DNA of 62,017 bases, filler included. It is 3 parts of 3 records of this genome, joined end to end, with 100 filler letters (N's around TTAATTAATTAA, not from the genome) between each part and the next. Parts side by side here need not be neighbours in the genome. Positions count along the whole stretch, not along the records: positions 24,009 to 55,674 come from SRR31156797_1249; 2 more parts are not named here. One strand, given 5' to 3'. Below the pieces are notes generated by a model. It was not told the DNA's origin. It saw only the letters and a program-made list of their open reading frames with translations, and ran no database searches. The first letter of the stretch is position 1; each line of letters starts with the position of its first letter. Below, in pieces: positions 24,009 through 55,674 of the stretch. The position numbers were made by a program, and so were the translations under genes.

Positions 24009-24020
24009 CCTTGAAATATC

Positions 24021-24068
24021 TGGTGGAGCTGGAGGGAATTGAACCCACGGCCTCTTGAATGCCATTCA
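24021..24068 (-). repeat. att core = 3' half of tRNA-Ala(GGC)
   Basis: Reverse complement TGAATGGCATTCAAGAGGCCGTGGGTTCAATTCCCTCCAGCTCCACCA: anticodon arm with GGC, T-arm, CCA; 5' half absent; partial copy at 55657-55674. Confidence 0.9.
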
Positions 24069-24498
24069 TACGCTTAAAAACTATATCCATTTATTTCAGC
24101 TAGTTAACAAAAAAACTTTACGACATTTCTTGCTATATCTTGTCTGTAATGTCGGGTTTGTACGTAAACCCATGCCGTAAAAAACAGAGCCTAACGGCCT
24201 CCTTGGAGGCGGTGTTTAGCTAAGTTTAGTTGCGTGTATTTTTGAAAAACGAACTAAACATATATAATAAAAGTGTTTAGCTCTCCCTTCGATTCTCCCG
24301 GCTTTGCACAAACCTGCAATAGTTTGCAATCCATGCAATAGGTAAAAACGACTGTAAGCCCAGTTCTGGGGCTGCTGCAGCTATCTCTTGCACCACTCCT
24401 TTTGTTGCAAAAAATTGGTCGAAACGACCCGAAGGTAGGTACGGTTAAGTTCGATTTTTCCGGGGGCTTTCTTTTTTTAAAAAATTTTCTGTGAGCGC

Positions 24499-24540
24499 AA
24501 AAAAGCCCCGCTTCATTCCTGAAGCAGGGCTTATCTTTTT
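24499..24540 (-). terminator. Terminator of the late (tail) operon
   Basis: Minus strand AAGCCCTGCTTCA-GGAA-TGAAGCGGGGCTT followed by a U run, just past the last tail gene. Confidence 0.75.
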
Positions 24541-24554
24541 AAAATCTTAGCCGG

Positions 24555-25745
24555 TTATTCCGTCATGGTGTCCACTTTTTCGCGTATTGTTTCAATATTG
24601 TCCGCATGGCTTTTCACTTCCGCACCTTGAGTTATGGGCGAAACATTGGGGTGCGTATGATGATCCAGAACCCATAACGCATCTCGGACATTTTCAATAA
24701 ATTCCAGCAGCAGCGGGAAAAAGCTTAATTCCCCGTCTGGAGTTTTAAATTCAAAAATCGGTGTTTTGATCCGGAGCGCTTCAGCTTCAATATGCTTTTC
24801 CATGATGACGGTTTCGGAGCTGGTGCCCTCTACAGTTCGCGTATGATCCTTTTTCACCAGATCAGTACGCTGGCCGCGCACCTCGGTACTGTGGTCCAGA
24901 TAAGTTACGGCCGTCCTGTTGGCCATAACCGTGGAACTTTTATTCTGGCCGATTGTCTCCGTGTGGTTCTGGGTGGTGTTCTCGGTCCGGTTCTGCAGCA
25001 CGTTTTCAGTCATGTCCTGTTTCACCGTATGATGATGATTTCCACCAGTAACGCCGTTCCAGTTCCGGGAAACAACCCAGCTTGAATCTGCAGCCGTTAC
25101 GAAATTCAGGTTATCCACTGCCACCATATCAATATGACCGCCGGACGTTAGGAGGATCCCGCCCAGAGCTTCTACACTTTTTACGCCGCCGATCTCCTCG
25201 GTACTGGATCCGCTCACCCTACGCATGTCGCGCACCAGCTCCGCCACGGAATCAATAGCCCGGGTGATCCGGATAAGACTGCTGTCTGTAATCCGTCCAT
25301 GGGTCTGGCGTGTCCAGTTTCCGTCCTGATCCACGCGCTGCAGGGTTTCATCATCCTGTTGCCACAGCAGTTCCCCGGTAGCCACATTGGGCAGGGATAA
25401 ACCCAGCGGATAGATCTGCCTTACCAGTGGATGATCCGGACGGCCGTAAGCGAACCCGACTACCACCTGCGCCCCGACTTCAGGAAAGCCGAAACTGCCC
25501 CGCTCCATACCTGCAGCAGGAACCGGAAGCGGAACGTCCTTATATATAGGATAGGCTTCATCCTTTTCCCCTTCCGGAGTCAATATTTCCAGATCCACAG
25601 CATAACGCGGCCGGAACCGCTCACAGGATCCGCCCTGCGCCGGTTCATCACTCACGGCCAATACCCGGGCATACCTATCCAAGTGCAAGCCTCCGGACAG
25701 CTCGGGAAAAATCTTAAGTACTGCTTTTTTTATTACTTCACGCAT
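24555..25745 (-). CDS. Baseplate spike-like protein (resembles the C-terminal part of the last HP1-type tail gene)
   Basis: FRPRYAVD, VGFAYGRPDHP OB-fold-like region, 8-residue beta-helix repeats (TENVLQNR/TENTTQNH/TETIGQNK), HTH motif near the tip. Confidence 0.7.
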   Translation of the reverse strand: MREVIKKAVLKIFPELSGGLHLDRYARVLAVSDEPAQGGSCERFRPRYAVDLEILTPEGEKDEAYPIYKDVPLPVPAAGMERGSFGFPEVGAQVVVGFAYGRPDHPLVRQIYPLGLSLPNVATGELLWQQDDETLQRVDQDGNWTRQTHGRITDSSLIRITRAIDSVAELVRDMRRVSGSSTEEIGGVKSVEALGGILLTSGGHIDMVAVDNLNFVTAADSSWVVSRNWNGVTGGNHHHTVKQDMTENVLQNRTENTTQNHTETIGQNKSSTVMANRTAVTYLDHSTEVRGQRTDLVKKDHTRTVEGTSSETVIMEKHIEAEALRIKTPIFEFKTPDGELSFFPLLLEFIENVRDALWVLDHHTHPNVSPITQGAEVKSHADNIETIREKVDTMTE

Positions 25746-26419
25746 ATCACTTCCATTTCATGCCCTTTCAATTTTACCTGCTTTACGCGCTGGCCAGTCA
25801 GTACCGCCCCCGGCCGCAAAGGTGGAATTATCGGGCAGCTCTTGGAACCGTCAGCCATAACCCGCTTGAACCATTTATCAGGAACCTGCAACGGCCTGCT
25901 TGCCCAGCGGGAATCATTCCACGATCCAACATAGACCTGCCCGTCAGGTTGCGGATTCCAGATAAAATCCGGAATCTGGAAAACATCCCCCAGCATTGCC
26001 ATACCGTGAAAACCATCCCCAAGCGTCTGGAAGAACGGAACCCGGGTAGTTGAATAATCCCGCTCCGGAACAATGAAGACTAAACCGGTTCTTTCGGTAT
26101 AGTGCTCGAGCACGTTTTTTAATGTGGGATGGCGTAGCGAAACCGGCCAGTGTTTATCCAGAATCCCGCCCAGCTCACGGCAGAAAATACGCTGCTGCAG
26201 GTTGTCCACCTTATGGCAGCTCTCCACATAGCCGGTGAAAAAAAGACGGTCTTTATCCTGAGAAGAATAGCCCACATAAAATTGAACCAGACCGGAAACC
26301 GGTTCCGGTGTCTGCAGCTGGAAAACAGCACGGCCGGTGCCGCAAAGCTCCAGCCGTATATCCTCGCTGACCAGCTTGAACTTCCGGCCGCTTATAGTCA
26401 GGTGTTTACGAATATTCAT
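25733..26419 (-). CDS. Baseplate hub-like protein (HP1-type)
   Basis: QQRIFCREL, SLRHPTL, WNPQPDGQVYVGSW; position in the tail operon. Confidence 0.6.
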   Translation of the reverse strand: MNIRKHLTISGRKFKLVSEDIRLELCGTGRAVFQLQTPEPVSGLVQFYVGYSSQDKDRLFFTGYVESCHKVDNLQQRIFCRELGGILDKHWPVSLRHPTLKNVLEHYTERTGLVFIVPERDYSTTRVPFFQTLGDGFHGMAMLGDVFQIPDFIWNPQPDGQVYVGSWNDSRWASRPLQVPDKWFKRVMADGSKSCPIIPPLRPGAVLTGQRVKQVKLKGHEMEVICVK

Positions 26420-26937
26420 GAAACCACCTTATCAACCTGCTCAATTACCTTCTTCCAGTTCGTGTCCGGATTCAGGGTCTGAACTACGCCTGTTAACTGG
26501 CCAAGTTCATTCTCAATCACAGCTGCAACCCCTTTCTGGCGCAGTTCAACCTTTTCCGGCACTGAAAGGTGCTCGCGCAATTTGAAACGGACTGACCACG
26601 AACGCAAAGTACGCTGTTCAGTCCACCTTACTCTTTCAACGCATTTCACTTGCGTAATCCCGCCAGTGTTGGCCGTCTGGTTTGCTACAGTGTAAACTTT
26701 CATTTCTCCGGTGCTGTCCTTAGTTTCCAGCACACTGATTAATTTTTGCAGGTCGGTCTTATCTTTAAATCTAATATTCAGGGAAACACTAAGCGTTTTG
26801 GGTTTGATCCCCTTATGCGCGGTATCGGTTCCGGAAGTTTCGCCGGAAAGATCCTCTTCATAGATTTCCATGCCCCCGGTGACCTTCAGATTATATCCGG
26901 GTACGTTGTAGTCACCCAGACGCAAAAAATTATTCAT
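26416..26937 (-). CDS. HP1-type tail/baseplate protein
   Basis: DLSGETSGTD..HKGIKPK, WSVRFKLREHLSVPE; overlapping stop/start. Confidence 0.6.
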   Translation of the reverse strand: MNNFLRLGDYNVPGYNLKVTGGMEIYEEDLSGETSGTDTAHKGIKPKTLSVSLNIRFKDKTDLQKLISVLETKDSTGEMKVYTVANQTANTGGITQVKCVERVRWTEQRTLRSWSVRFKLREHLSVPEKVELRQKGVAAVIENELGQLTGVVQTLNPDTNWKKVIEQVDKVVS

Positions 26938-27836
26938 AGGCCAAGCACCTCTTTAAAAATGGCCATTTTTTCAGGCTGACCAATCCAGCAGCAAATTATG
27001 CTCAAAACATGAGCGCCGTCAGTTATGGCCAGTTTTGAAAAATCGTTCCTGATCCCGCCCACGGTCCCGGTCAAATAAGCAGCCTGCCCGGATCCGCCTG
27101 CAAAAGTTGCGGCCAGCTCCGCCCAGCTCGCAGCGGCTTCAGCAACCTGATTCCTTTTTTTCTCCATGACTTCCTGCAACCTTGTTTCCGGCCGCTTGTT
27201 CTGGGTGTCGTAGCCGTGAGAAATGGCCAACATGGAAGCCATGGCCGCGTCTATGTCCTTATTCTTTTTGTGCTGCCGTTCATCAAGTTTCTGGATCTTT
27301 GGAGAAATGAAGCCATTGCCGAAGATGTATTTTTCAGTCTCCAACACGGCCAGATCCGCCGCCCTGCGCTGGACCAGCTGCAACGGAACAACCGCAAAAA
27401 CCGTATTGAACGTTGCCAGCTTCTTGGCCATGTCTGCATGATCGTATCCGGTCAGCTGTAAGAACACGGCTCCGCATTGCCCTTCCGGCAAATTTTCATA
27501 AGGGTCGGCCAGCTTGGCCAGTACAGCGTCACGGCAGGAGCTGGGCGAAAGATAAGCATAATCCCCGCGCTTATCCCCCACGGGATGCACATAAGGATGA
27601 ACGCAAAGAAAATCGGCTGAAATGGCCAGAAGTGAATTCAGCCGGCGAATCAGATCTGAAGCATTAGCGGCAGAGCCGGAAACAGGTGAAGGTGTGACCG
27701 GGATAAATCCGGACACACCATTTAAACGGGACTGGGCTGCAGAGACTTCCCCCGGTGCTGCAGCCAGAACAGGATCCGCGCACTGCTTTATAGCTGCAGC
27801 TGTACCCGGGAGATTAAAACTAACTGCTTTCCACAC
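26934..27836 (-). CDS. HP1-type tail-associated hypothetical protein
   Basis: MW start, VHPY and YLSP motifs; coupled to neighbouring genes. Confidence 0.55.
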   Translation of the reverse strand: MWKAVSFNLPGTAAAIKQCADPVLAAAPGEVSAAQSRLNGVSGFIPVTPSPVSGSAANASDLIRRLNSLLAISADFLCVHPYVHPVGDKRGDYAYLSPSSCRDAVLAKLADPYENLPEGQCGAVFLQLTGYDHADMAKKLATFNTVFAVVPLQLVQRRAADLAVLETEKYIFGNGFISPKIQKLDERQHKKNKDIDAAMASMLAISHGYDTQNKRPETRLQEVMEKKRNQVAEAAASWAELAATFAGGSGQAAYLTGTVGGIRNDFSKLAITDGAHVLSIICCWIGQPEKMAIFKEVLGL

Positions 27837-28128
27837 TGGATTTGCCCATGATGACCATTTTAAAAACTTTAATGACGGCCTTAACAGCTACTTTCAGAGA
27901 GGCAATTGTTGTTGCGGAATCAAGAGCCGCTTCAGCCGCTGCAAGTTCATCGTGCGTATGGCTGGAGATTTTGCCGCTGTCCACGATCCGGATTGAGGTT
28001 TTAACCACAACTCCGGTCCCGGGTTTGATCATTGTCGGATTGTCGTGAATTTCAGCCACAATGTACGGGGCCAGATCTGCGGCCATTTTTATTTTTTCCG
28101 CATGGGTCATGCTGCTTACATCAATCAT
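27820..28128 (-). CDS. Small protein downstream of the tail fibre (possible chaperone)
   Basis: Position only; start MIDVSS after GGAG. Confidence 0.5.
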   Translation of the reverse strand: MIDVSSMTHAEKIKMAADLAPYIVAEIHDNPTMIKPGTGVVVKTSIRIVDSGKISSHTHDELAAAEAALDSATTIASLKVAVKAVIKVFKMVIMGKSSVESS

Positions 28129-28132
28129 TTTT

Positions 28133-30781
28133 TTATGCTCCCAGTTTCCATGTGTCGATTCGTGCGGATTCAATCAGGGATTTACTACCTGCAGGCAGCC
28201 CTTTCAGGCCCATGGCAATGGTCCGGAACGGAGCCGGAGTCTGTTTTGTAGATCGTAAATATACATAGGTAGGTAAATCAGGATCTGTATCAATTCCCAA
28301 GGTCGCTTCAGCAATAGAAATTTCTTTAAAGTCTTCCGGCACAAAAGAGGCTCCAGACACACCTGTTGCAGCCGTTAACGTTGGCATAAGGCTACAATCT
28401 GTAACAACGTCAGTAAGACCTTCTTCAGAAATATCTACAGCATATCCGGTCTTTTTAATTTTGAATGCAACCTCGTCAACGATCCAGTAATAGTCGACCT
28501 TCTCCGCATTAAATACAGCCCAATATTTAAATACCTTTTCGGATGAAACAGGATTGAAGCGCATCTCTTGGGATCCACCCGGTTCAAAATTATTCGTTTG
28601 AATAATCTCCCACTCAACTCCATCGTTGCTGCCCCTCAAAGTAACACTAGCGGGTGCATAATCATGATAACCTACAGATTGTGTCGGATGTATAATTCCA
28701 TATTCTTCCAACGATACAGGGTCTGGAAAAACCCACCCAATATACAATTCTCCTATTTCTCCAGCTGGCCACCCATCTCCATCCATTCCTCTCCACCCTG
28801 TGTTATTCTGAGAGAACTCACCATCAAACGCTTTATCCGCAGTCCAAATAGGATCATTATCATGAGAGGCAATAACATTACCGGGGTATGGCTTAGCTGG
28901 ATATTCAGAATATGGAACTATAGTTACATTGCCAGCAGTAATAACCCCCTTGTTTGTTACTATCTTTTGCCCTGTAACAATTGGAGTATCGATCCTGAGA
29001 GTTGTATTTGTCGTACCGTCTAATACTATAGACCTTTTTTGCTGTATCTTTGCGTTAACTACATACTCCGCCCAATCCCCTTCACCTGCATCCTGTTCGG
29101 TGCTGTTACTGTACAGCTCCGCCAGATCTTCCAGCGCGGTTCCGGAGGCCGTGGCTTTGACCACAATAGCCCACGCAACCATCAGGATAGCGGCATCACC
29201 AGAAATGAACGCTGCAGCCGTATTAAATGATGCTGCATAGGACCATTCTGATTCACCCAGAATCTGTCCAGTTTCCTTGCAGTAAGCATCATAAGTATTT
29301 CCGGGCTGCAGCAGTCCTGCAGGAAGCTGATATTTAAAGCCGCCAAGCACCTCCGGAGACTTATGCAATTCAGCGTCCCCTTCTTTTACCATGAACTGGG
29401 TGGAATAGTGGGTGTCTTCGGTGTCACCTACAACGGTAAAAGCACCGGCTTCCAGCTCCGGACGTTCCTGCACTCCGGTTACACCGTCAGCAGGGGCCAG
29501 CATTTCAGGTCTGGCCACATAGTTAAATTCTGCTTTTGTAGTGAACACCACAGCCACAGACCACGGAGACCACTGGCCTGTGTTTAATCGCCAGCGTACA
29601 CGCACTTTGTACATGTTGCTGACCAGCAGATAACCGGCTGGCATGGCAAAACGGTTCTGGGCTGCAGCTACGGAATCCGGACCGGAATCAAACAGCGGGC
29701 TAGAAAAATCATTAGAGGCATGATCAACCTGCACCTGAACAGCATTCAGGGTGGTGTTGATGAAAATGGGAACGTACGTACCCCAAGTAAAAACAGGGGT
29801 TTCCCCTACATCCACAGCGTTTTTTTCAGGAAAAATTATCTCCGGAATTCCGGTGGCCAGTTTGGCCAGCAGTTCCATGTGTGCATTAGGATCCTGTTCA
29901 TGGATTGAAATCTGGTTCTTTAAATATTCCACCAAATCCGACTTGATTTCATCCACTGTACGGAAGTCGGCAACCATACCCGTGCCGTCTATTTCAGCTA
30001 TCTTTATATAGTAATGCTTGATTCCGTCCTGAACGTTATCTTCAAAGCTGTCACCATAAACAGGCTCGGCCTTGGCCACTACGGTGGAACCCTGTGGAGT
30101 CAGGGAGACATCAAGCCAGACTGATTTCGGCAGATTTTCCCCGGCAATGGGCAGCGGGTTATCAAGATCAATGCGGATCCCCTCCACGTAGCCCACGCCA
30201 GCGGATAAAAAATACAATCCTTCAGTATTGATCAGCTTAAACCCGTCACACCAGAACCGTGCACGGCCGTATATGTCCCGGTTGGTCATGCGGTCCCGTT
30301 CATCCAAATCACCTAGCCTGGTCGAAAAATCCAGCTGCCATGTGTCAGCCTCCACGCTTATTCCGGAACTCTGTGCCGCGCCTTCATAGGCCAGCATAAA
30401 GTTACGGGTCAGGTGGTTCCCCTGAATCTGGCCAGCGGTCTTGAATTTGGAGATAGTAGGCAGTGTGGTTATGGCCACAACAACATCATCAGCGGATGAA
30501 TAAAGCCCGATCCAGTTAAAATCAAAGTCTCCGGCATTGGAATCCAGCACCGCCGAATAAACAACCTGATTAGGATTTACATACTTTTTATATTCAGCCG
30601 GAATGTCATATTCTAAAACAATCTGATCCGCTGCAGGCTTCTGGGTGCTTCGGTCAATGTCTGCGTCCGGATCCACGCCGGGAACGTTGGCGAAGATCAT
30701 TTTATCAATGACCAGAATCTGGCCAGCACCCTGCTTTGCTGCAATCAAATTTTCACCGGGAATGGTAATAATAGAACTCAT
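28133..30781 (-). CDS. Tail fibre / receptor-binding protein
   Basis: N-terminal VNPNQVVYS...GDFDFNWIGL collar domain, FN3-like segments, F5/8-type-C-like module. Confidence 0.88.
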   Translation of the reverse strand: MSSIITIPGENLIAAKQGAGQILVIDKMIFANVPGVDPDADIDRSTQKPAADQIVLEYDIPAEYKKYVNPNQVVYSAVLDSNAGDFDFNWIGLYSSADDVVVAITTLPTISKFKTAGQIQGNHLTRNFMLAYEGAAQSSGISVEADTWQLDFSTRLGDLDERDRMTNRDIYGRARFWCDGFKLINTEGLYFLSAGVGYVEGIRIDLDNPLPIAGENLPKSVWLDVSLTPQGSTVVAKAEPVYGDSFEDNVQDGIKHYYIKIAEIDGTGMVADFRTVDEIKSDLVEYLKNQISIHEQDPNAHMELLAKLATGIPEIIFPEKNAVDVGETPVFTWGTYVPIFINTTLNAVQVQVDHASNDFSSPLFDSGPDSVAAAQNRFAMPAGYLLVSNMYKVRVRWRLNTGQWSPWSVAVVFTTKAEFNYVARPEMLAPADGVTGVQERPELEAGAFTVVGDTEDTHYSTQFMVKEGDAELHKSPEVLGGFKYQLPAGLLQPGNTYDAYCKETGQILGESEWSYAASFNTAAAFISGDAAILMVAWAIVVKATASGTALEDLAELYSNSTEQDAGEGDWAEYVVNAKIQQKRSIVLDGTTNTTLRIDTPIVTGQKIVTNKGVITAGNVTIVPYSEYPAKPYPGNVIASHDNDPIWTADKAFDGEFSQNNTGWRGMDGDGWPAGEIGELYIGWVFPDPVSLEEYGIIHPTQSVGYHDYAPASVTLRGSNDGVEWEIIQTNNFEPGGSQEMRFNPVSSEKVFKYWAVFNAEKVDYYWIVDEVAFKIKKTGYAVDISEEGLTDVVTDCSLMPTLTAATGVSGASFVPEDFKEISIAEATLGIDTDPDLPTYVYLRSTKQTPAPFRTIAMGLKGLPAGSKSLIESARIDTWKLGA

Positions 30782-31374
30782 AGTTTAGCCTCTACTGTCA
30801 GAGTGTCGTTATCAAAGCCATTGCCGCGCACGGTCACGGCTAAAGGCGGGATTTTCGCATATACGGTCAATGTATCGTGGTTGAAATCTTCAGCCCGGAC
30901 ATAAATGCTGATAGGGGTTATTACCTGCCAGTCATAACGGCGGCAGGTCCGGCCATAGTGTTGAATCAGGGTTTCCAGCAGCTTCTGATTCTTGGCCAGC
31001 TGGCCGTCAGAGAGACGAATTGAAACTATGTCCCAATCCTGCCCGGGTATCCTTTCCTCTATCTCTACGTATCCAACACCCAGACGCTGGAAAATTCTTT
31101 TGAACCCTGCCACAGATCCGGAATCCACCGCATTGATCCGCGCATACTTCACGCGCAGCCGGAACAATTCCAGCGGTTCAGTGTCAAAACGCTTAATATC
31201 CCGCTGCCACGCCAGCAGCTTCAGGAATCCCTCGGTGCACTTCTCCGGATCCTGCATATTGACCGGAATCATGGCCCAGCCAGCCAGCAGTTCCCACCAC
31301 TTCAGCGCGGCCTTGCGGAGCTTTTCAAACTCCGGACCGCCAAGCCAGAAAGGTAATTTCAAAACCGGAATCAT
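30778..31374 (-). CDS. Tail protein I-like (baseplate wedge)
   Basis: LLAWQRDI, YARINAVDSGS, YGRTCRRY; follows J. Confidence 0.8.
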   Translation of the reverse strand: MIPVLKLPFWLGGPEFEKLRKAALKWWELLAGWAMIPVNMQDPEKCTEGFLKLLAWQRDIKRFDTEPLELFRLRVKYARINAVDSGSVAGFKRIFQRLGVGYVEIEERIPGQDWDIVSIRLSDGQLAKNQKLLETLIQHYGRTCRRYDWQVITPISIYVRAEDFNHDTLTVYAKIPPLAVTVRGNGFDNDTLTVEAKL

Positions 31375-32543: not shown

Positions 32544-32545
32544 AA

Positions 32546-32869
32546 CTATGCCTCAAGGGTAAAAGCCAGCTCGCCAAAATCGTAAGCCGTGGCGGTAAGA
32601 TTAAATGTTCCGGGCTGGCCATCAACTTCAACTATCTGGCAGCTGCCCGGAACTATGCGTTCATCGTCTTCAACTTGAATCTTGATCTTGATCAAATTCT
32701 CAGCCGTCTTTTTTGCATCACGGTTGCCGACCAGCTCCACCAGCAATCCGGTATCCCGGATCATGTGGCAAATGTCCTGCGCTATGCAGGCCAGATCCGT
32801 AACCAGCTCCGGATTCCCGCCAACGTCCAGCGTTATGTCATTGTCAGTAATTAAAAGGTCAAAGTTCAT
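32546..32869 (-). CDS. DUF2590-like baseplate protein (gpW/gp25 position)
   Basis: DLLI.DND, IAQDI.HMIR, VEDDERIVPG; TGATG overlap with the TMP gene. Confidence 0.78.
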   Translation of the reverse strand: MNFDLLITDNDITLDVGGNPELVTDLACIAQDICHMIRDTGLLVELVGNRDAKKTAENLIKIKIQVEDDERIVPGSCQIVEVDGQPGTFNLTATAYDFGELAFTLEA

Positions 32870-34728: not shown

Positions 34729-34729
34729 G

Positions 34730-35172: not shown

Positions 35173-35183
35173 ATTTATTCCTT

Positions 35184-35906: not shown

Positions 35907-35909
35907 GCT

Positions 35910-45687: not shown

Positions 45688-45732
45688 AAATAAAATCCCC
45701 GGTACTGGTGACAAGTACCGGGGATTTTATTT
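45688..45732. terminator. Bidirectional terminator between the P-Q-ogr and early operons
   Basis: AAATAAAATCCCCGGTACT-N7-AGTACCGGGGATTTTATTT. Confidence 0.85.
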
Positions 45733-46260: not shown

Positions 46261-46317
46261 CCATTTATTAAAACTTGCGCGCGCGTATACGTGTGCGCGC
46301 GTAAAAGTACATATAAC

Positions 46318-49456: not shown

Positions 49457-49984
49457 CTAAAAAGGAAGTTCTTCAAAAAAGTCATGAACGATTTTCTTAG
49501 CCAAATCTTCATTCATTTTTTCAAAGTAAGTTTCAGCTTCATCCCAACCGGAATCGCTATCCTTATAGACCTTGTTCATTGCTTCAATAGGTCCACCCCA
49601 GCCCAACAAAAAGGAGGTGCATACCTCCGGGCCGTTCGGTCCTTCGTCCAGCAGGACTAAGATCTGGCCATACTCTTCAGTTTCGTACAGCTTCGCAAAT
49701 GGGGTAATGCATGCGAGTGCTTCAGGAATGTAAAGGTCGAATTCCTCTGTTGCTGAAGAAACAGCCATAATTGCTTCCGCTTCATTGTATGCGCCAAATA
49801 CATTCTCTGCTGCTTTCCAACCAGCTTCTGTGTTTTTAAAGCTTCCACTGATCGAACAAATGCCCAAACCGGAAGGCTTAAACGAAACCTTAACTTCCGG
49901 GAGTCTGTTGTTTGCTCCAACGGTGATCAAAATCTGGCCATGTTTCTCAGTCTCATAGAGTTTTGCGAATTCAAGCTTATTCAT
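49457..49984 (-). CDS. Hypothetical protein made of two tandem homologous domains
   Basis: FAKLYETE.(H/Y)GQIL...PEV..SF...GW..AE..F occurs twice. Confidence 0.75.
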   Translation of the reverse strand: MNKLEFAKLYETEKHGQILITVGANNRLPEVKVSFKPSGLGICSISGSFKNTEAGWKAAENVFGAYNEAEAIMAVSSATEEFDLYIPEALACITPFAKLYETEEYGQILVLLDEGPNGPEVCTSFLLGWGGPIEAMNKVYKDSDSGWDEAETYFEKMNEDLAKKIVHDFFEELPF

Positions 49985-50237
49985 CTTCGCCCCCTTCGTC
50001 CTCGAGCGGGGTTACTTCCACACGAAACCGCTTTTCACCAAAGGAAACGATATGGTAAGCGGATTCGCCATATTCAACGCCGTTCAGTACTTTTTGGATA
50101 ATTGCTGACCAGACTTCGCCGTCAATGGGCTTATGCTCTATGGGTTCATACAGATTTTCGCCGTGGGTATAGAGATGAATTCCATTTGTTGAGCTGCAAA
50201 AAGCAACATTCACGTTATCAAGATTAATGCTATCCAT
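49977..50237 (-). CDS. Hypothetical protein
   Basis: GAGGTG RBS before MDSINL; overlaps neighbours. Confidence 0.6.
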   Translation of the reverse strand: MDSINLDNVNVAFCSSTNGIHLYTHGENLYEPIEHKPIDGEVWSAIIQKVLNGVEYGESAYHIVSFGEKRFRVEVTPLEDEGGEDE

Positions 50238-50478
50238 GCTGCACCTCACTAGGAAAATAAGTAGTTTCAGTGCATACCTTGATCCGAAATAGCTTTTTAT
50301 TCCCTTCGGAGTCGGTAACTTCAATGGGCGGCATATCGTCAAATTCATCTTGTGTTACTACCGTTCCGACTTCAGCTTCTTCTTGAGCAAAGTGGCTTGC
50401 AGCTATGTCCGCGCTGGCCCTGTGGTAAACACCCTCTTCAGCATCATCATTAAGAAATTTTACTGAGAACCGTTCCAT
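50230..50478 (-). CDS. Acidic hypothetical protein
   Basis: TAATG coupling to the upstream gene. Confidence 0.6.
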   Translation of the reverse strand: MERFSVKFLNDDAEEGVYHRASADIAASHFAQEEAEVGTVVTQDEFDDMPPIEVTDSEGNKKLFRIKVCTETTYFPSEVQHG

Positions 50479-50681
50479 TACTCTTCCCCTCCATTTTCAA
50501 ATTCAATTGCATCATCCAAAACAACCGCGCAGTTGCAAACCGACTGCCTAATAAAATCCAAAAGGCTTTTGGCTCCGGCGGAGACTTCTGTTTCCGGGAG
50601 TGTTTCAATTGTTTCGAGAGCACAACATGCGTTGAAAAGGTGGGTGATTGCCTGATCGGCAGTAAGGTCTTGTCTGGCCAT
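50478..50681 (-). CDS. 67-aa first gene downstream of the antisense RNA (icd/kil-like position)
   Basis: GGAGG RBS immediately follows the antisense target; start MARQDL. Confidence 0.7.
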   Translation of the reverse strand: MARQDLTADQAITHLFNACCALETIETLPETEVSAGAKSLLDFIRQSVCNCAVVLDDAIEFENGGEE

Positions 50682-50731
50682 GATAGCCTCCGTAGTAGTT
50701 TTAGGTGTCGGTTGCCCATCGACCAAAAAAA

Positions 50732-50802
50732 AGAGCAACCAGAATTCCTAACACCTACTACGATGCCTTCATGCCTCACGACATGAAGATTCTGGTTGCC
50801 CT
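50732..50802 (-). ncRNA. C4/CI-like cloverleaf antisense RNA
   Basis: 14-bp closing stem, hairpin with GUGA tetraloop, hairpin with GUAGUA loop and UAGG bulge complementary to 50909-50925 and 50691-50705. Confidence 0.75.
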
Positions 50803-50929
50803 GTCTATCAGGATGGAAGTGCAGAAAATAAACTACACCTATCCTGTCAGATTCATTAAGGGGTGCGCTAATGCGCAATAAAAAATCTCCGGTAAGGCTG
50901 GAGCACACCGTAGTAGAATTAGGAAGCTC

Positions 50930-50959
50930 AGAATGCCCCCTAAAACTAAAATTTGTCAA
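50930..50959 (-). promoter_or_regulatory. Putative sigma70 promoter of the antisense RNA/primase operon
   Basis: TTGACA-N18-CATTCT, with an operator palindrome just upstream. Confidence 0.5.
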
Positions 50960-50964
50960 GAGGG

Positions 50965-50981
50965 TAGGATAGACTATCCTA
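50965..50981. promoter_or_regulatory. 17-bp operator-like palindrome
   Basis: TAGGATAGACTATCCTA. Confidence 0.7.
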
Positions 50982-51037: not shown

Positions 51038-51715
51038 ATGACTGAAGATTATATTGTTGAAATCAAGGGCAGCGGGAAGAATCCGTATAAGGTTAATTTG
51101 AAAACTTATGCCTGCACTTGTCCTGATTGGCGGAACTGCCGAGCACAGCAGTCCATGGACTCTCCCAGAAGACTTTGCAAGCACCTTATCAAAGCTATTT
51201 GTGAAAACGGACTTGAAGGGGAATTCCCTACCGCTGACTTGCAGAGCCTGTATAAAAAGAAAAAAGGCTACCCACTTCCGAAGGATATTAACTTCCTTGC
51301 TGAAACTCACTTCCAGCAGGAAGTCGATACCGAATCCGTCAAGCGTATTCAATTCCTCATGGGTGACCATAATACGCTTAAAAATTGTAAGGAGTTCTTC
51401 AAAATCACAGAAGACGGCCCTGTATTGAGCCATGTTTCCAGTAGGCGTGATCTGCGCTGTGGGTGTGAACGTCTGTGCTGGTTGGGGCTCGCTGATAGCT
51501 GTGCTGATAAGTCTGCGGCAGAACTCCTTGACGGCTTGGCTCTGAAGGATCTGCGCAATATCGGCGGCGTTCTGGGTGAAACTTTCAAAAGCAAACCTTC
51601 CGGAATTAAAATCCTCTCCGAACACCCGGAACTTGATTCCGCTTTTACTGAAGCTGGATTTAACAAAGAAGATTTTTTTATCCTGAAACCGCTTAATCTG
51701 GATATGTTGCGGTAG
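51038..51715 (+). CDS. SWIM zinc-finger protein (accessory, opposite to its operon context)
   Basis: YKVNL...CTCPDW...LCKHL SWIM signature; AAGGAG RBS. Confidence 0.8.
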   Translation: MTEDYIVEIKGSGKNPYKVNLKTYACTCPDWRNCRAQQSMDSPRRLCKHLIKAICENGLEGEFPTADLQSLYKKKKGYPLPKDINFLAETHFQQEVDTESVKRIQFLMGDHNTLKNCKEFFKITEDGPVLSHVSSRRDLRCGCERLCWLGLADSCADKSAAELLDGLALKDLRNIGGVLGETFKSKPSGIKILSEHPELDSAFTEAGFNKEDFFILKPLNLDMLR

Positions 51716-51984
51716 CTCCGGAGCCTCATTTCTTTTCAATACGAATCTTCTCATTTTTCACCCTTCATAAAAAAACGCCCTTTCCAGCCACTGGTCAGGG
51801 CGTTTTCTATTTTATTTTGTATCGCTCTTGTATTTTCATTTATTCTGCGGCCCTCCCTCGGATATTCCGCGCCGTGCGGATTGTTAGGGGAGGTGGAGCA
51901 CGGGAGGACCACAGAATTAAGCCGGTTAACCCTATTCCGGCAGGCTTGATATTAGGAGAAGGTTTATTTTGAGATGCTTTGTTC

Positions 51985-52725
51985 TTAAACAGCTAAAAAA
52001 CCGTATCTTGCATTCATAATGGCCAGACCAATCATATAGGCTTCTTGTGGAACTACGGCGTTTCCGAGTCCTTTATTTCTGTCCAACCTTCGGGAAACCC
52101 CATCAGTATTTCTGTAAGCTCTGGCACCGGCTGTGGATGGCCAAGAACAAGGGAACAAAAATCCACCCAATTGTTTTTTAGCGGATTGGACACATTCTTT
52201 CTTGGATTCTTGCGCCCTCCCTTGAAACACGTTGCATTCGGTGTGGGCCAAAATCCATACTCTATTTCTCTGGTGTCGTGCCCCGACAGCTGCAGCTGGA
52301 ATAACGAGCGGCCAGCAGGTGTAGCCGATTCCTTCCAAGTCAGATAAGACACTGTCGAGACCCAATGTGATGTGCCCATCAACATTCTCAAACAAACACC
52401 AAGAGGGGAGTTTTCCCAGTTTTCTGAAACCGCAAAGGATTCGAACAATTTCCGGCCAGAGGTGGCGGTCATCTTCTTTGCCTTTTCGCTTCCCGGTTCT
52501 GGAAAATGGCTGGCAGGGATATCCACCGCACAACAAGTCAACAGGGGGAATCTTTCCGGCCGGCACTTTGGTAATGTCTCCAAGATTGGGCACATTGGGC
52601 CAGTGTCGTTTAAGGACTGCGCTACAGTATTCATCAATTTCTACCTGCCATTTTATTTCCATTCCGGCCCATTCCAGCCCGAGATCCAGCCCACCGATAC
52701 CTGAAAATAGAGAACCGACTTGCAT
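51985..52725 (-). CDS. DNA (cytosine-5) methyltransferase, large chain (motifs I-VIII and X)
   Basis: SLFSGIGG, GGYPCQPFS, FENV, HQRNRVW, LGNAVVP. Confidence 0.92.
   Translation of the reverse strand: MQVGSLFSGIGGLDLGLEWAGMEIKWQVEIDEYCSAVLKRHWPNVPNLGDITKVPAGKIPPVDLLCGGYPCQPFSRTGKRKGKEDDRHLWPEIVRILCGFRKLGKLPSWCLFENVDGHITLGLDSVLSDLEGIGYTCWPLVIPAAAVGARHQRNRVWILAHTECNVFQGRAQESKKECVQSAKKQLGGFLFPCSWPSTAGARAYRNTDGVSRRLDRNKGLGNAVVPQEAYMIGLAIMNARYGFLAV
52053..52472 (-). CDS. Overlapping-frame methyltransferase small chain carrying motif IX (start uncertain; frame open from 52637)
   Basis: WPTP and PELTEILMGFPEGWT in an alternative frame inside the MTase gene. Confidence 0.72.
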   Translation of the reverse strand: MTATSGRKLFESFAVSENWENSPLGVCLRMLMGTSHWVSTVSYLTWKESATPAGRSLFQLQLSGHDTREIEYGFWPTPNATCFKGGRKNPRKNVSNPLKNNWVDFCSLVLGHPQPVPELTEILMGFPEGWTEIKDSETP

Positions 52726-52729
52726 TGAA

Positions 52730-53230
52730 CTATGCTTTAGACATTTTCTTGGTGTCAGCTAATTCTCTTTCCAGATTCCGTAGTTTGCCGATCATGGAAT
52801 AGACTTCAGCATTAACCTGCAGCAATTCGCGAATTACCCTGCGGACTTCATGAAGCTCCAGAATTCCATCCTCTATTGCTTCGCTGGCAGCGCGGCCCAC
52901 ATCACTGGTCTCTTTGAATAAACTGGCGGAGTCTTTCAACAAACCAACGCAGTCGACTTCTTCATGTTCAATTTGCTGATTGTTAACAGTTCTATCCGCG
53001 TGGGCTACCAGCCAAAGAATGATAATGTCGTTGCCTAGCACCTCACACATTTGAATCAGCTTTTCATAGCTGGTGTAGTATGGCTCCGTTGAAAAAATAC
53101 GGTGGCAGTTACTGAACTCGTAACTCATTTCCTTCGCCACTTCCTTTTCACTTTTCCCGCTTACCTCAAGTGCCATTCTAAAAGCGTCATAGGGTTCCAA
53201 CTTAAGAAACTGCTGCATCTCAAAATTCAT
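52730..53230 (-). CDS. CII-like (186 CII/CP76-type) regulatory protein
   Basis: N-terminal HTH (KEVAKEM), C-terminal EAIEDG...E...I..E; second gene of the lytic early operon. Confidence 0.65.
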   Translation of the reverse strand: MNFEMQQFLKLEPYDAFRMALEVSGKSEKEVAKEMSYEFSNCHRIFSTEPYYTSYEKLIQMCEVLGNDIIILWLVAHADRTVNNQQIEHEEVDCVGLLKDSASLFKETSDVGRAASEAIEDGILELHEVRRVIRELLQVNAEVYSMIGKLRNLERELADTKKMSKA

Positions 53231-53242
53231 TGTTCAACCTTC

Positions 53243-53509
53243 CTAATTGTGAAATTTAGCCATACGACACGCCTTGCGGATATCAGCCGCTGATACCCCG
53301 AATTCATCACGCAAGATTTTCAGAGTCCTGCGGAGCTGCACATACTTGGCCGCCAAGACAATGGCGCGGCGTGCGCTGGAGGACATAACCAGTTTCTTGC
53401 GCTGGTTGCGGTAAACCCGGGGGTCTGCCTTCAAAAATCTTGCAGAGCTAGAATAAGACCCGAACTCTTGTCTCAAAAATTCAAAGTGTCGTATTATTGT
53501 CTTTGTCAT
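53243..53509 (-). CDS. Cro/Cox/Apl-like small basic DNA-binding protein
   Basis: FGSYSSSARFL HTH-like segment; first gene divergent from the repressor-like gene. Confidence 0.5.
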   Translation of the reverse strand: MTKTIIRHFEFLRQEFGSYSSSARFLKADPRVYRNQRKKLVMSSSARRAIVLAAKYVQLRRTLKILRDEFGVSAADIRKACRMAKFHN

Positions 53510-53518: not shown

Positions 53519-53584
53519 TAGGATTTTTAATCCTAGCTAGTCAAGGACAAATAACACCCTTTACGCCTAGGATGGAAAATCCTA
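53519..53584. promoter_or_regulatory. Two 17-bp operator-like sites in the divergent switch region
   Basis: TAGGATTTTTAATCCTA (53519-53535) and TAGGATGGAAAATCCTA (53568-53584). Confidence 0.75.
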
Positions 53585-53611: not shown

Positions 53612-53890
53612 ATGGATAACGATTTTGAAAGAGAGCTGATTAAGTATGTTACGCGCTGGTATAAAGATGCGGACATGACTCATTCAGACTTTGCCCGTAA
53701 GTTTTTTCATGAGCTTTCAGAGGAAATAGCCGTACGACAATGGCGGCGGGTTCGTGACCCAAAAAAAAGCGGAAATATCAGGAAGTTAACCCTAACAGAA
53801 TCCCGCCGAATCAGTGAAATAATGGGCATGAAATTTTCAAATTTAATATGGCAAATTGAGCAAATAATTGAAAACAAAAAGGCCGGATAA
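53612..53890 (+). CDS. Putative immunity repressor (short XRE-like HTH, no peptidase domain)
   Basis: MTHSDFARK...LTLTESRRISEIMGM; co-oriented with xis-int. Confidence 0.55.
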   Translation: MDNDFERELIKYVTRWYKDADMTHSDFARKFFHELSEEIAVRQWRRVRDPKKSGNIRKLTLTESRRISEIMGMKFSNLIWQIEQIIENKKAG

Positions 53891-54239: not shown

Positions 54240-54476
54240 ATGGAGACAACTTTCGATATACGAGGACCATTTTATAACCAGAAAAAGGCAGCAGAATACT
54301 GCGGCTATTCGCCCTCTACCTTTTGCAAAAAAATAAAAGGCTTCAAGCTGCCCATGGCTGGCCCGGACCTTAAACGCTACCCGCAATCGGTACTAGATGC
54401 ATGGATGGCCAACCCGGAAGTTTTCCGGCCGCAAAAACGCAGAACAAAACACAAACCTATGAAGGTGACCGTATGA
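54240..54476 (+). CDS. Excisionase-like winged-helix protein
   Basis: KKAAEYCGYSPSTF...RYPQSVLDAWM; ATGA overlap with the integrase. Confidence 0.75.
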   Translation: METTFDIRGPFYNQKKAAEYCGYSPSTFCKKIKGFKLPMAGPDLKRYPQSVLDAWMANPEVFRPQKRRTKHKPMKVTV

Positions 54477-55495
54477 GTGTGCGCCAAAGAAAAGATGGGT
54501 ACTGGATTGTAGATTTCAGGGACGAAGGAAAAACTAAAACTCGCTCATTCGGAAAAGGGAAGGAAGGAAAAAGAAAAGCCACAGAGTTTGATCTGAAGGT
54601 CAAGCTTCTAAAAAATCAGGGCAAGCCGATCCCAGTTGCACGGCCGGGAGGAATGTATCTTGATGAACTGTGCCAGCTATGGATCAACTACAAAAAAACA
54701 CAGGGTAGAAAAACGGGCTGGCTGAAAGACTGGATCAGCCTTTTTAACAATCGGTTTGCTCCGGAGCTGACCGACAAGCCTTGCGACATGCTCACGCAAT
54801 CCGACATTACCAATGTCATAGCAAAATACTATAGCGACTCCGCGCAATCCACACGCAACCGCTACACTGGATATCTGAGTGCTATTTTTGAATACGGATA
54901 CGAGAATGATCATATTAAAAGAAATCCCTTGAAGAGCTTGAAAAAAGGGAAAGAAAATTCACGTCAATCAATGCTGACTTTGAAAGATCTACGTAAAATC
55001 CAGAACCATTCACCAGATCATTTAGCGTGGGTTCTTGACGTAGCATGGAACATTCCGGTGCGTCCGGGTAAGGCGGATCTGTTTCCGCTCCGCTTCGATA
55101 ACAATGTCGATTTTTATATGAATACGGTCAAAGCCTACCACACCAAAGTTAATAAATGGTCAAAGATTGAGTGCTCAAAAAAGTTTATGAAAAGACTCTA
55201 TATCGCCAGCCAGACAAACGAAAGCGGGTACCTGATCGAATACAAAGGGGAACCCGTTCAAAATGTTAGCACTGCCCTAAAAAGAGCAGCAGGCCCCAAA
55301 GGCGCAAACCTGCCTTACTCTGTATGCATGACAGATATCAGACATCTCTGGATTACAACCATGATCAACAAGGGAGTGGAACTTTCAACCATTGCCTATC
55401 TGGCCGGAACCAGTGTCCGGATGCTCATAAAAAACTATTACGAACCCCATTCTGCAGAAAGAGCGAAGGCGGCAAAAATGTTACCAGAAATTTAA
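54473..55495 (+). CDS. int: Tyrosine recombinase (integrase)
   Basis: N-terminal arm-binding-like domain, STRNRY, PVRPG, TK, DIRH, C-terminal YY; adjacent to att. Confidence 0.85.
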   Translation: MSVRQRKDGYWIVDFRDEGKTKTRSFGKGKEGKRKATEFDLKVKLLKNQGKPIPVARPGGMYLDELCQLWINYKKTQGRKTGWLKDWISLFNNRFAPELTDKPCDMLTQSDITNVIAKYYSDSAQSTRNRYTGYLSAIFEYGYENDHIKRNPLKSLKKGKENSRQSMLTLKDLRKIQNHSPDHLAWVLDVAWNIPVRPGKADLFPLRFDNNVDFYMNTVKAYHTKVNKWSKIECSKKFMKRLYIASQTNESGYLIEYKGEPVQNVSTALKRAAGPKGANLPYSVCMTDIRHLWITTMINKGVELSTIAYLAGTSVRMLIKNYYEPHSAERAKAAKMLPEI

Positions 55496-55535
55496 CACGT
55501 TTTTGTTAAGCAATGCTGTGCAATCGCCAGAACGC

Positions 55536-55566
55536 AAAAAGCCCGGTCAAACTGACCGGGCTTTTT
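55536..55566. terminator. Terminator after the integrase
   Basis: AAAAAGCCCGGTCA-AAC-TGACCGGGCTTTTT. Confidence 0.85.
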
Positions 55567-55613
55567 CTTTTACGGCATAGCTCAAAACGTACGTAAAAAC
55601 CGCCGTAAAGCAT

Positions 55614-55648
55614 AAAAAAAGGGTTTACGTAAAACCACGTAAGCCCTT
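55614..55648 (-). terminator. Terminator downstream of the tRNA 3' end
   Basis: Minus strand AAGGGCTTACGT-GGTTTT-ACGTAAACCCTTTTTTT. Confidence 0.7.
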
Positions 55649-55674
55649 GAAATATCTGGTGGAGCTGGAGGGAA
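55645..55674. repeat. 30-nt direct repeat of the contig start (24009-24038)
   Basis: CCTTGAAATATCTGGTGGAGCTGGAGGGAA at both ends. Confidence 0.97.

Follow-up and report, generated by a model that had tools for sequence, protein, structure and literature searches.

Proposed RNA-based immunity in a primase-bearing P2-like phage

Immunity RNAs of the P4 and P1 kind occur in a few enterobacterial elements and make up one Rfam clan. In phages P1 and P7, the c4 RNA gates icd-ant by means of two short boxes that pair with two sets of targets (the a and b boxes). Of these targets, the downstream ones overlie the first gene's ribosome-binding site, and heteroimmune relatives have different boxes. The phage locus described here, contig B, is similar in having two boxes, two target sets and a covered ribosome-binding site, but its gated operon would be one for replication and its RNA is not in Rfam C4. 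With P4 it shares the order of the immunity region, i.e. promoter, 5' target, hairpin RNA with a complementary loop, 3' target, small genes, primase-helicase and iterons; crr lies behind alpha in the P4 record, and the iteron field lies behind the primase in contig B. In the portion of the P4 account available to us, the pairing logic of the leader (seqA, a CI RNA carrying seqB, and seqC; PMC4825925) is also the same as in contig B. However, P4 is a satellite while contig B is a complete phage that has its own capsid and tail genes as well as a repressor-protein switch, the contig B RNA ends in its own U8 terminator, unlike the P4 system, and P4 alpha belongs to another primase family, with only a weak pairwise Toprim match (E 0.009).

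The phages phi3 (Phitrevirus), PaBSM-2607-JFK, BIBS67 and ESSI2_ev239 combine a P2-type head, an HP1-type sheath and a phrog_1139 primase, as does contig B, and phi3 and PaBSM also have its gene order (int, repressor, cox, primase, portal/terminase, head, tail). The terminase is 51.6% identical to that of phi3 and its kin, the sheath 43% and the primase 36-39%. PhiCTX, RSY1 and Smp131 were compared by primase alone (34-36% identity); the available part of its description presents Smp131 as P2-like and as carrying a primase-like protein (PMC3931495). On these sequence comparisons, the body plan of contig B and its virion and primase layout are ordinary, and the mosaic that a preliminary description of this DNA had put forward is no novelty. 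That description had named characterised relatives of equal layout as grounds against it; such relatives exist for virion and primase, but not for the RNA layer. In phi3 and PaBSM the primase follows directly after cox, without a separate promoter, leader RNA or small-gene block; there is no annotated free C-terminal-domain gene, and the integrase is unrelated to that of contig B at E 1e-5.

Gene content, integration site and host of contig B

Contig B is exactly one whole contig (24009-55674) of the window, the full stretch of 62,017 nucleotides that was analysed, and lies between runs of N with TTAATTAATTAA at 23910-24008 and 55675-55774. We read it as the genome-length temperate phage of a Maridesulfovibrio host, a marine sulfate reducer, belonging to the P2 family (Peduoviridae) and of HP1/phi3 type; the whole explanation, with att site, primase and iterons, and gated operon included, is held with moderate confidence. 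Genes were called by Pfam and PHROG profile searches of 44 ORFs, and the order of the head genes was read from coordinates (Table 1).

The head genes are those of Peduoviridae (capsid, GPO scaffold, gpM and gpP terminase, gpQ portal), with matches to PF05125 (E 3e-99), PF05929 (E 6e-50), PF05944, Terminase_6N/6C and Terminase_5, and phrog_68 (E 7e-127). Q-P is divergent from O-N-M-L, which spans 39243 to 42462. The contractile tail is of HP1 type (DUF2586 sheath, E 8e-133; Phage_HP1_Orf24 tube, E 1e-58; HP1_ORF34, E 1e-39), and there is a late activator of the Ogr_Delta family. Scanned with Pfam and PHROGs, the 44 ORFs gave no match to a gpA-type rolling-circle initiator, in agreement with the P2-family head, HP1-type tail and missing gpA noted earlier.

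Table 1. Features of contig B, in window coordinates
Feature	Position	Strand	Basis
attP core: 12 nt of flank and the 3' 48 nt of tRNA-Ala(GGC), reverse complement	24009..24068	.	60/60 identity
Baseplate and fibre genes: hub/spike (two ORFs), HP1 orf34-like, tail fibre (28133-30781), gpI, gpJ, DUF2590	24555..32890	-	PHROG and Pfam
Tape measure, tail assembly chaperone, lysis genes, DksA/TraR zinc finger, HP1-type tube and sheath	32869..38082	-	Profile matches
HP1-type tube	36508-36957	-	Phage_HP1_Orf24
HP1-type sheath	36958-38082	-	DUF2586
gpS, gpR, gpL, small terminase gpM, capsid gpN, scaffold gpO	38091..42462	-	Profile matches
Large terminase gpP (42602-44392) and portal gpQ (44377-45387)	42602..45387	+	Profile matches
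Ogr/Delta zinc-finger late activator	45409..45660	+	PF04606, E 1.9e-13
Bidirectional stem-loop terminator closing replication operon and ogr	45688..45732	.	22-nt arms, 95% complementary
64-aa ORF, last gene of replication operon	45731..45925	-	Conserved in L017 (86%) and L019 (40%)
Candidate origin: 10 GGTTAC(A) iterons in both orientations, 58-bp stretch at 15.5% GC, bounded by 38-nt inverted repeats	45945..46260	.	Sequence
Alternating purine-pyrimidine GC tract	46273..46304	.	Also in L017, L019, L005
Stand-alone paralogue of primase C-terminal winged-helix domain, 158 aa	46318..46794	-	38% identity, E 6e-19
Primase-helicase, 881 aa: Zn ribbon, Toprim, P-loop, C-terminal winged helix	46800..49445	-	phrog_1139; Toprim_2
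Four small ORFs of 175, 123 (start uncertain), 82 and 66 aa; no family assigned	49457..50681	-	ORF scan
seqC target site, extending into GGAGG ribosome-binding site of 66-aa ORF	50690..50705	-	Pairing with seqB
Hairpin RNA, ~80 nt: 11-bp outer stem, inner hairpin, loop with seqB (50747-50765), U8 tract	50725..50799	-	Fold and covariation
seqA, 5' target site	50906..50923	-	Pairing with seqB
Leader promoter TTGACA-18-CATTCT (50930-50959), palindromic operator upstream (50965-50981)	50930..50981	-	Aligned leaders; palindrome search
225-aa cargo ORF, CxC...CxH motif, variable slot	51038..51715	+	Copies 54-55% identical in L017 and L008
Stem-loop and T run ending first early operon	51768..51804	.	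Read from sequence; kept in L006
First early operon: cox-like gene (88 aa, probably leaderless), CII-like gene, C5 DNA methyltransferase	51985..53509	-	Profile matches
Two TAGGAT-N5-ATCCTA operators, one overlapping Pe spacer and -10	53519..53584	.	Palindrome search
Candidate immunity repressor (92 aa, no family), then terminator	53612..53890	+	Position; conserved in 7 related loci
Xis-like HTH gene	54240-54476	+	Profile matches
Tyrosine integrase	54473-55495	+	Profile matches

The att sequence is identical at 60 of 60 bases to the tRNA-Ala(GGC) region of Maridesulfovibrio, with a match in 26/26 genomes of the genus, so that the search of this tRNA proposed in the preliminary description found the att core, and on this identity the phage is one that integrates at tRNA-Ala(GGC). 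The first 30 nt of the core recur at 55645-55674 as a terminal repeat. Plasmid persistence, which the preliminary description had allowed for, is neither favoured nor disfavoured by the sequence: the contig ends fit the integrated and the episomal state alike, and no partition gene was found for this phage. The sulfate-reducing host suggested beforehand is borne out by primase relatives with 70% identity in two Maridesulfovibrio MAGs and by contig A, which is 84-86% identical to chromosomes of the genus.

In the lysogeny region, the candidate repressor is 30-51% identical across the seven related loci. The cargo slot of the related locus L006 holds a toxin-antitoxin-like pair in place of the 225-aa ORF. 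A 434-aa ORF at 50450-51754(-) was rejected as the shadow of this conserved plus-strand ORF.

The leader of the replication operon

The TTGACAA and CATTCT elements of the replication promoter are identical across eight aligned leaders (TTGACG and CATTCG in a ninth, distant copy, L035), and the -10 hexamer is a poor match to the E. coli consensus. The perfect palindrome TAGGAT-N5-ATCCTA has only three copies in the 62 kb, one at this promoter and two between the cox-like and C-like genes, which accords with the repressor-type operator previously claimed here. Given its position upstream of the -35, the palindrome could equally well be an activator site or one that controls the divergent cargo gene.

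The leader is 230 nt long (fold z = -5.8), and its terminator hairpin has a minimum free energy of -36.9 kcal/mol (z -7.1). The hairpin loop, seqB, is complementary both to seqA, upstream at the 5' end of the leader, and to seqC, downstream, where it abuts the ribosome-binding site of the first gene. Since one strand encodes both the RNA and its targets, the RNA is not an antisense transcript in the strict sense; of the early leftward layout described previously, the order (operator, promoter, RNA, small genes, primase, C-terminal-domain paralogue, iterons) stands, but the term antisense does not. With a covariance-model score of at least the gathering score as the threshold, the Rfam models C4, isrK and c4-a1b1 found nothing at E <= 10 in 45300-55674, nor at E <= 1 in six loci holding seven related leaders; as a control, P4 scores 74.9, 60.8 and 44.1 bits, respectively, in the same scan. 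Our own model of the RNA, R1, has no match to P4. No sequence or structure homology between the two RNAs is thus detectable with these models, and common descent with P4 is unsupported.

Across the nine related leaders, seqA, seqB and seqC change in concert on a conserved scaffold, and this triple covariation upholds the P4/P1-style RNA device of the preliminary description. RNAalifold recovers the seqA:seqB helix unaided, with compensatory change in 23 of 70 predicted pairs; in the two boxes of this helix, 8/11 (box 2) and 2/5 (box 1) pairs are compensatory. In the eight-leader alignment, 97.7% of cells pair and 21 of 59 pairs carry double changes, as against 33-43% and 4-8 with partners slid, although the leaders are related sequences of one bacterial family and independent events are therefore fewer than the cells counted. 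None of 500 shuffles of the eight leaders attains even one of the five measures. The cognate partner gives the best seqB:seqC duplex, alone or in a tie, in all eight rows, and the best seqB:seqA duplex in seven. For the window leader the duplexes reach -28.1 (B:A) and -19.5 kcal/mol (B:C), with 0/1000 shuffles as good, whereas the B:C duplex of L035 is equalled or beaten by 196 of 1000 shuffles.

We propose that the replication operon is a separate transcription unit which would be gated twice, by a promoter palindrome and by a leader RNA. At the first gate, the replication promoter adjoins a palindrome that shares its half-sites with the operators of the main C/cox-type switch. At the second, the seqB loop of the terminator-hairpin RNA would pair with two sites, seqA and, at the first cistron's ribosome-binding site, seqC. 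The mechanism would resemble that of P4 CI or P1 c4. In a lysogen, a short RNA would be released at the U8 tract. Bound to seqC on a read-through or incoming transcript, it would leave the first gene untranslated, and through polarity the primase as well; bound to seqA, it would prevent seqA from competing with the terminator and so reinforce termination. The two variable boxes would set immunity specificity. The existence of the short RNA, its start and end, its action in trans and the direction of its effect are what we infer here.

The pairings themselves are shown by the covariation, which as evidence of pairing fits cis and trans action alike. The leader could thus be a switch acting in cis only, in which seqB pairs either with seqA, leaving the ribosome-binding site free and the terminator weakened, or with seqC, masking the site, with no diffusible RNA and no immunity. 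Both pairings do form within one molecule in minimum-energy folds, and the covariation counts (A:B against B:C) suit either mode equally. However, the boxes vary much more than the other stems do, with pairwise identity among leaders of 48-56% in box 2 and 77% elsewhere; between the window and L006, 12 of 29 positions of box 2 are identical compared with 170 of 182 outside the boxes. Such hypervariability is what selection on specificity between co-resident elements should produce and is not expected of a private fold, and so counts against a purely cis-acting switch. In addition, one element has two tandem leader modules with unlike boxes, the strong terminator right after seqB would free a short RNA, and L035, with different boxes at all three sites, lies upstream of a P22-type antirepressor gene (E 7e-37), which is also the kind of gene gated by P1 c4. 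We therefore regard action in cis alone as unlikely, though it keeps some weight.

The probable replicon and the wider meaning of the leader

The primase is of the phiCTX orf37 type, matching phrog_1139 at E 1.3e-234 across residues 15-880, and all 40 phage records that match it cover at least 80% of the protein. It does not carry the domain set of P4 alpha: only Toprim_2 passes, DUF5906 (E 0.035) falls below the cut-off, and D5_N and Pox_D5 are absent, while P4 alpha gives the full set (Zn_Ribbon_Prim, Toprim, D5_N, DUF5906, Pox_D5) in the same scan. The predicted model of the stand-alone paralogue is a winged helix (pLDDT 86-95). Fold comparison of the C-terminal domain, with the winged-helix origin-binding C-termini of P4 alpha and SaPI Rep as the class of interest, gave middling matches, the best at Z 5.6 (2ipq; rmsd 3.2 over 82 residues) and the C-terminus of SaPIbov1 Rep at Z 4.5, and a Foldseek search of it returned no match at E <= 0.001; on these models, the resemblance shows no more than a shared winged-helix arrangement.

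Downstream of the primase, 10 of the 44 copies of GGTTAC in the whole window fall within 272 bp. This cluster of short repeats, with an AT-rich stretch and an adjoining initiator gene, has the sequence features of an iteron origin and, together with the phrog_1139 primase, fits the primase/iteron replicon proposed earlier. The C-terminal winged helix of the primase probably reads this origin, and the free copy of the domain, encoded between primase and iterons, probably modulates origin binding. The repeats might instead bind some other protein, for example terminase at cos or a transcription factor acting on the genes to either side. The P2 cos site adjoins the portal gene, and the field lies ~560 bp from the portal gene end; no cos site was located, part of 45945-46304 may serve packaging, and the alternating GC tract lies beside the field. 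Nevertheless, different repeats occupy the same place in relatives and track the last ~30 primase residues (six relatives), the primases of the window and L017 being 94-99% identical over residues 331-780 and 72% over 781-881. Relatives without terminase, portal and capsid genes keep a repeat field beside the primase, and the 15.5% GC stretch lies mid-field. A role other than that of an origin is improbable on these grounds.

That the leader owes its conservation to a 58-aa protein encoded on the other strand (50705-50881, +) is hardly credible: the frame is open and of equal length in the window and L006, but it is full-length in only two of eight leaders, broken or different in L008, L011 and L014, and offers no coding explanation for compensatory changes among three distant sites.

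Within contig B, the leader RNA, which is absent from Rfam C4, isrK and c4-a1b1, appears to be the new part in a virion and primase combination that is already known. Tentatively, and at somewhat less than even probability, we suggest that it represents a new family of trans-acting immunity RNAs, whose two programmable boxes would sort P2-like phages and tail-only elements of Desulfovibrionaceae into heteroimmunity or incompatibility groups. The family would be a portable cassette that gates a primase operon or an antirepressor on top of the protein repressor, and would be either convergent with P4 CI or a very distant relative of it. On the present sequences, P4/P1 logic appears in an unrelated RNA of a deltaproteobacterial phage lineage, beside a classical repressor switch. 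The natural variation of box 2, with seven variants among eight leaders, offers ready cognate and non-cognate pairs for the study of immunity groups. A question that follows is the relation of the P4 replication-immunity module to primase-bearing P2-like phages. If the RNA is a very distant relative of P4 CI, P4-type satellites may have borrowed their replication-immunity module from such phages, or the reverse.

Gene content, attachment site and host

A scan of 44 open reading frames (ORFs) against PHROG and Pfam recovered the whole P2-family head set (portal and large terminase, scaffold and capsid, small terminase and head completion) and an HP1-type tail (DUF2586 sheath, HP1 Orf24 tube, HP1_ORF34, DUF2590, gpJ, gpI, fibre, and tape measure with chaperone), along with genes for lysis, a DksA/TraR zinc finger protein and a tyrosine integrase. 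An Ogr/Delta activator is also present. No gpA-type initiator was found among these ORFs. The combination of P2-family head and HP1-type tail genes without gpA noted in the preliminary description is therefore confirmed by the scan, but the suggestion that the mosaic is unusual is wrong, as phages phi3 (genus Phitrevirus, Peduoviridae) and PaBSM-2607-JFK already have the virion and primase layout. Their order of integrase, repressor, cox, primase, portal with terminase, head and tail is that found here, and so described relatives exist for this part of the layout. The 881-aa primase matches phrog_1139 over its full length (E 1e-234), and its search returned 40 phage records, each with a match spanning 80% or more of the protein; relatives at 31-39% identity are carried by phi3, PaBSM-2607-JFK, BIBS67, phiCTX, RSY1, Smp131 and ESSI2_ev239. 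The best matches of the large terminase lie in the same Pseudomonas phages (51.6%), which also carry the HP1-type sheath (43%). In PMC3931495, Smp131 is described as P2-like and as having a primase-like protein.

The window consists of three contigs joined by N runs carrying TTAATTAATTAA, and the phage (24009-55674, 31,666 bp) is exactly the middle one. Both of its ends share an exact 30-nt repeat, lying within a stretch identical to the Maridesulfovibrio tRNA-Ala(GGC) region at 60 of 60 positions. Because this identity to the host site (at least 60 nt) exceeds the 30-nt terminal overlap, the ends are compatible with either an integrated or a circular state, and the repeat was rejected as proof of one over the other, since both could yield such ends. 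A 77-nt att query was matched in all 26 Maridesulfovibrio genomes, with tRNA-Ala(GGC) present at the match in eight of nine loci scanned. Many of these genomes have several att-like copies of the tRNA 3' end spread over no more than tens of kb, with as many as 11 matches in one genome, which suggests tandem arrays of islands at tRNA-Ala(GGC).

Two Maridesulfovibrio MAG chromosomes encode a primase of 70% identity, and contig A, the first of the three, is syntenic with Maridesulfovibrio chromosomes (84-86% identity across 7.7 kb). Taken together, the primase relatives, the att match and the synteny of contig A, whose physical link to the phage is putative, support Maridesulfovibrio as the host. 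Both the sulfate-reducer host and the tRNA-Ala(GGC) attachment site proposed earlier are thus borne out. Contig C (55775-62017) is low in GC (33-40%); it has no match in any of the 26 Maridesulfovibrio genomes, and neither of its two large ORFs (451 and 761 aa) matches a Pfam or PHROG family.

Four loci of related elements (L003, L004, L005 and L018), and probably a fifth (L017), run from integrase, switch, primase, origin and ogr directly to gpR, sheath, tube, lysis, tape measure, baseplate and fibre, and lack portal, terminase, scaffold, capsid and head-completion genes. A capsid query had no match anywhere in four of the five genomes tested. From their gene content they would appear to be integrated tail-only (tailocin-like) elements with a retained replicon and immunity region.

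The predicted leader RNA and its targets

The leader of the replication operon folds with a z score of -5.8 against shuffles. Its 3' part is an 80-nt hairpin (-36.9 kcal/mol, z -7.1) with an 11-bp outer stem, an inner hairpin, a 21-nt loop and a U8 tract. The loop sequence (seqB) can pair with a target in the 5' part of the leader (seqA) and another at the ribosome-binding site of the first gene (seqC), with duplex energies of -28.1 kcal/mol (B:A) and -19.5 kcal/mol (B:C), equalled by none of 1000 shuffled targets. Exact copies of the 9-mer CTACTACGG are confined to these two targets within the whole window. The minimum-energy fold extends the seqA:seqB pairing into the 3' arm of the terminator. 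A 58-aa ORF on the opposite strand was rejected as an explanation of the leader.

Features of the phage and of related loci (positions in the window unless a locus is named)
Feature	Position	Strand	Remark
Ogr/Delta activator	45409-45660		
seqC	50690-50705		complementary to seqB; extends into GGAGG ribosome-binding site
seqB	50747-50765		hairpin loop; complementary to seqA and seqC
seqA	50906-50923		complementary to seqB
Leader	to ATG of 66-aa ORF at 50681		~230 nt
Leader promoter	50930-50959		TTGACA-18-CATTCT
TAGGAT-N5-ATCCTA, third copy	50965-50981		five bases upstream of second TTGACA
Cargo ORF	51038-51715	+	after first early operon terminator
First early operon	ends at 51768-51804		cox-like, CII-like, C5 methylase; ends at stem-loop with T run
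TAGGAT-N5-ATCCTA, two copies	between 53243-53509 and 53612-53890		between divergent cox-like gene and 92-aa repressor candidate
Att stretch			12 nt flank + 3' 48 nt of tRNA-Ala(GGC); 60/60 identity to Maridesulfovibrio region
Repeat ATTACA	L017, L005, L003		
Repeat GGT(T/G)ACA	L019		
Repeat GGTCACT	L018		

Homologous leaders were found in five of 401 family genomes sampled (by BLAST), in four of 26 Maridesulfovibrio genomes, in one IMG/VR contig (L006) and in one metagenome contig (L008, the only real one of three metagenome loci, L009 and L010 being false positives on inspection), giving eight distinct copies in all, two of them in tandem within one element. A covariance model (R1) of the leader matched two of 151 further family genomes, one match being new and distant (L035); it matched none of 151 genomes sampled from the order, and none of P4, phi3, PaBSM and L003-L005. 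Searching viral_contigs with a 17-nt leader word returned only the contig already known, and four metagenome runs held contigs with relatives 80-95% alike, with no new box type readable in full. Homology starts at the -35 hexamer, with upstream likeness only where the palindrome described below is shared.

RNAalifold recovers the seqA:seqB helix unaided, with compensatory change in 23 of 70 pairs. When the structure was specified by us and tested over 470 cells, 97.7% of the cells paired, versus 33-43% when partners were slid by 1-3 columns; both sides had changed in 21 of 59 pairs, versus 4-8, and none of 500 shuffles reached any of the five pairing measures. The seqA:seqB helices have compensatory pairs at 8 of 11 positions in box 2 and 2 of 5 in box 1, the two variable specificity segments of the leader. 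In the alignment, seqC is interrupted by a gap in two leaders, so seqB:seqC duplexes were scored leader by leader: the cognate one was best or tied best in all eight rows, and cognate seqB:seqA was best in seven, the exception having the same box 2 as the window. Both pairings are thereby established.

The boxes change fast. Seven box-2 and two box-1 variants occur among the eight leaders, and pairwise identity is 48-56% in box 2 versus 77% elsewhere; the window and L006 are identical at 12 of 29 positions in box 2, versus 170 of 182 outside the boxes. In L035 the boxes differ at all three sites, with B:A at -35.3 kcal/mol (none of 1000 shuffles as good) and B:C at -16.6 kcal/mol, which is not significant (reached by 196 of 1000). 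At this locus (1400-2566, G040 contig C42), what follows the leader is a gene for a P22-type antirepressor (E 7e-37) rather than a replication operon, and a Bro-N protein and a ribbon-helix-helix protein are encoded upstream. In L018 (13358-14534, G195 contig C28), a single primase gene is preceded by two tandem modules of leader and 66-aa ORF, spaced by about 790 nt, whose specificity boxes differ.

In satellite P4, the CI RNA pairs with its seqA and seqC, resulting in premature termination before the replication genes (PMC4825925). The present region follows the same plan: a promoter and a 5' target come first, then a hairpin RNA carrying the complementary loop, then a 3' target placed at the first ribosome-binding site, and last the small genes and the primase. 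The logic of the boxes is the same as that of P1 c4. Since the layout is that of P4 and the box logic that of P1 c4, we infer transcript ends, action in trans and sign of effect as follows: the hairpin RNA would be released at its own U8 tract and would block the first cistron, and with it the primase by polarity, while RNA occupying seqA would also favour the terminator. A switch acting only in cis, with no trans-acting RNA, is a live alternative; the fast-changing boxes, tandem modules and antirepressor cargo speak against it and favour, without proving, action in trans.

Early region, primase and candidate origin

The palindrome TAGGAT-N5-ATCCTA has three perfect copies in 62 kb. One of the two at the main switch overlaps the spacer and -10 of a TTGACT promoter, and relatives retain TAGGA...TCCTA cores there, their repressor candidates being only 30-51% identical. 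The third copy may repress, activate or serve the divergent cargo gene. The TTGACT promoter would yield a leaderless cox-like mRNA. The cox-like gene lacks a ribosome-binding site, and a -10-like TATCAA hexamer precedes its ATG by 5 nt (window 53490-53530), an arrangement conserved among relatives that suggests a leaderless message. Between the terminator of the first early operon and the leader promoter, oppositely oriented cargo is found that differs between relatives: a 225-aa ORF with a CxC...CxH motif in the window, L017 and L008, and a RelE/HigB-like and HTH antitoxin-like pair in L006 (1925-2513). The conserved plus-strand ORF was preferred to a 434-aa ORF on the minus strand, which was rejected.

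In the primase, a Zn ribbon is followed by Toprim (the PF13155 match passes), then by a P-loop (DUF5906, whose match stays below threshold) and finally by a C-terminal domain. P4 alpha has the same domain order, although the two are linked solely by a weak Toprim match (E 0.009). Just downstream, a 158-aa ORF shares 38% identity with residues 784-878 of the primase (E 6e-19), and near-length homologues of this paralogue number only two among 5.8 billion proteins. Its residues 70-158 are confidently predicted (pLDDT 86-95) as a winged helix, with middling matches to winged-helix folds (among them DUF1528 C-terminal domain, Z 5.6; oriT-binding protein, Z 5.5; SaPIbov1 Rep C-terminus, Z 4.5). Foldseek returned nothing at E <= 0.001 with this model, and the P4 alpha C-terminal domain was not among the 50 VIA fold matches listed.

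Behind the paralogue ORF, 272 bp hold ten copies of GGTTAC(A) in both orientations (44 occur in the window); in their midst, 58 bp have a GC content of 15.5%, and 38-nt inverted repeats flank the whole. Two 16-nt units make up a GC tract of alternating purines and pyrimidines (46273-46304) that sits between the paralogue gene and the iterons; L017, L019 and L005 have it too, and it is absent from L003. Relatives have the same architecture in the same place with differing repeats, the type of which tracks the last ~30 primase residues: ...EKNRSVRS...KVVKCW is common to the window and L019, and ...DKGR...KT(T/V)RCW to the ATTACA group. Between the window and L017, primase identity is 94-99% over residues 331-780 but drops to 72% over 781-881. 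As repeats and C-terminus change together, the comparison supports the C-terminal domain as the probable reader of the repeats and the field as a candidate origin. A packaging site is argued against by the relatives that retain the field without terminase, portal or capsid genes.

Relation to the P4 and P1 RNAs

Three Rfam models detect P4 (C4, 74.9 bits; isrK, 60.8; c4-a1b1, 44.1). The same three models found nothing in the early region of the window at E <= 10, or at E <= 1 in six loci holding seven related leaders, and Rfam as a whole gave nothing meaningful on the early region at the gathering threshold or at E <= 10. Because these models miss the window and the six loci, and R1 misses P4, the leader RNA appears to work like the P4 and P1 RNAs without detectable membership in their families. 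A limited literature search, which is not proof of absence, found no P2-like phage with P4-type RNA immunity.

Two further proposals of the preliminary description stand: a primase and iteron replicon, in view of the primase match, the GGTTAC(A) field and the joint change of repeats and C-terminus, and a P4/P1-style RNA device, in view of the seqB pairings and the covariation across related leaders. The suggestion of maintenance as a plasmid finds no support. The new element is a family of RNAs with P4/P1-like logic, carried by an autonomous lineage of P2-like phages of sulfate reducers.
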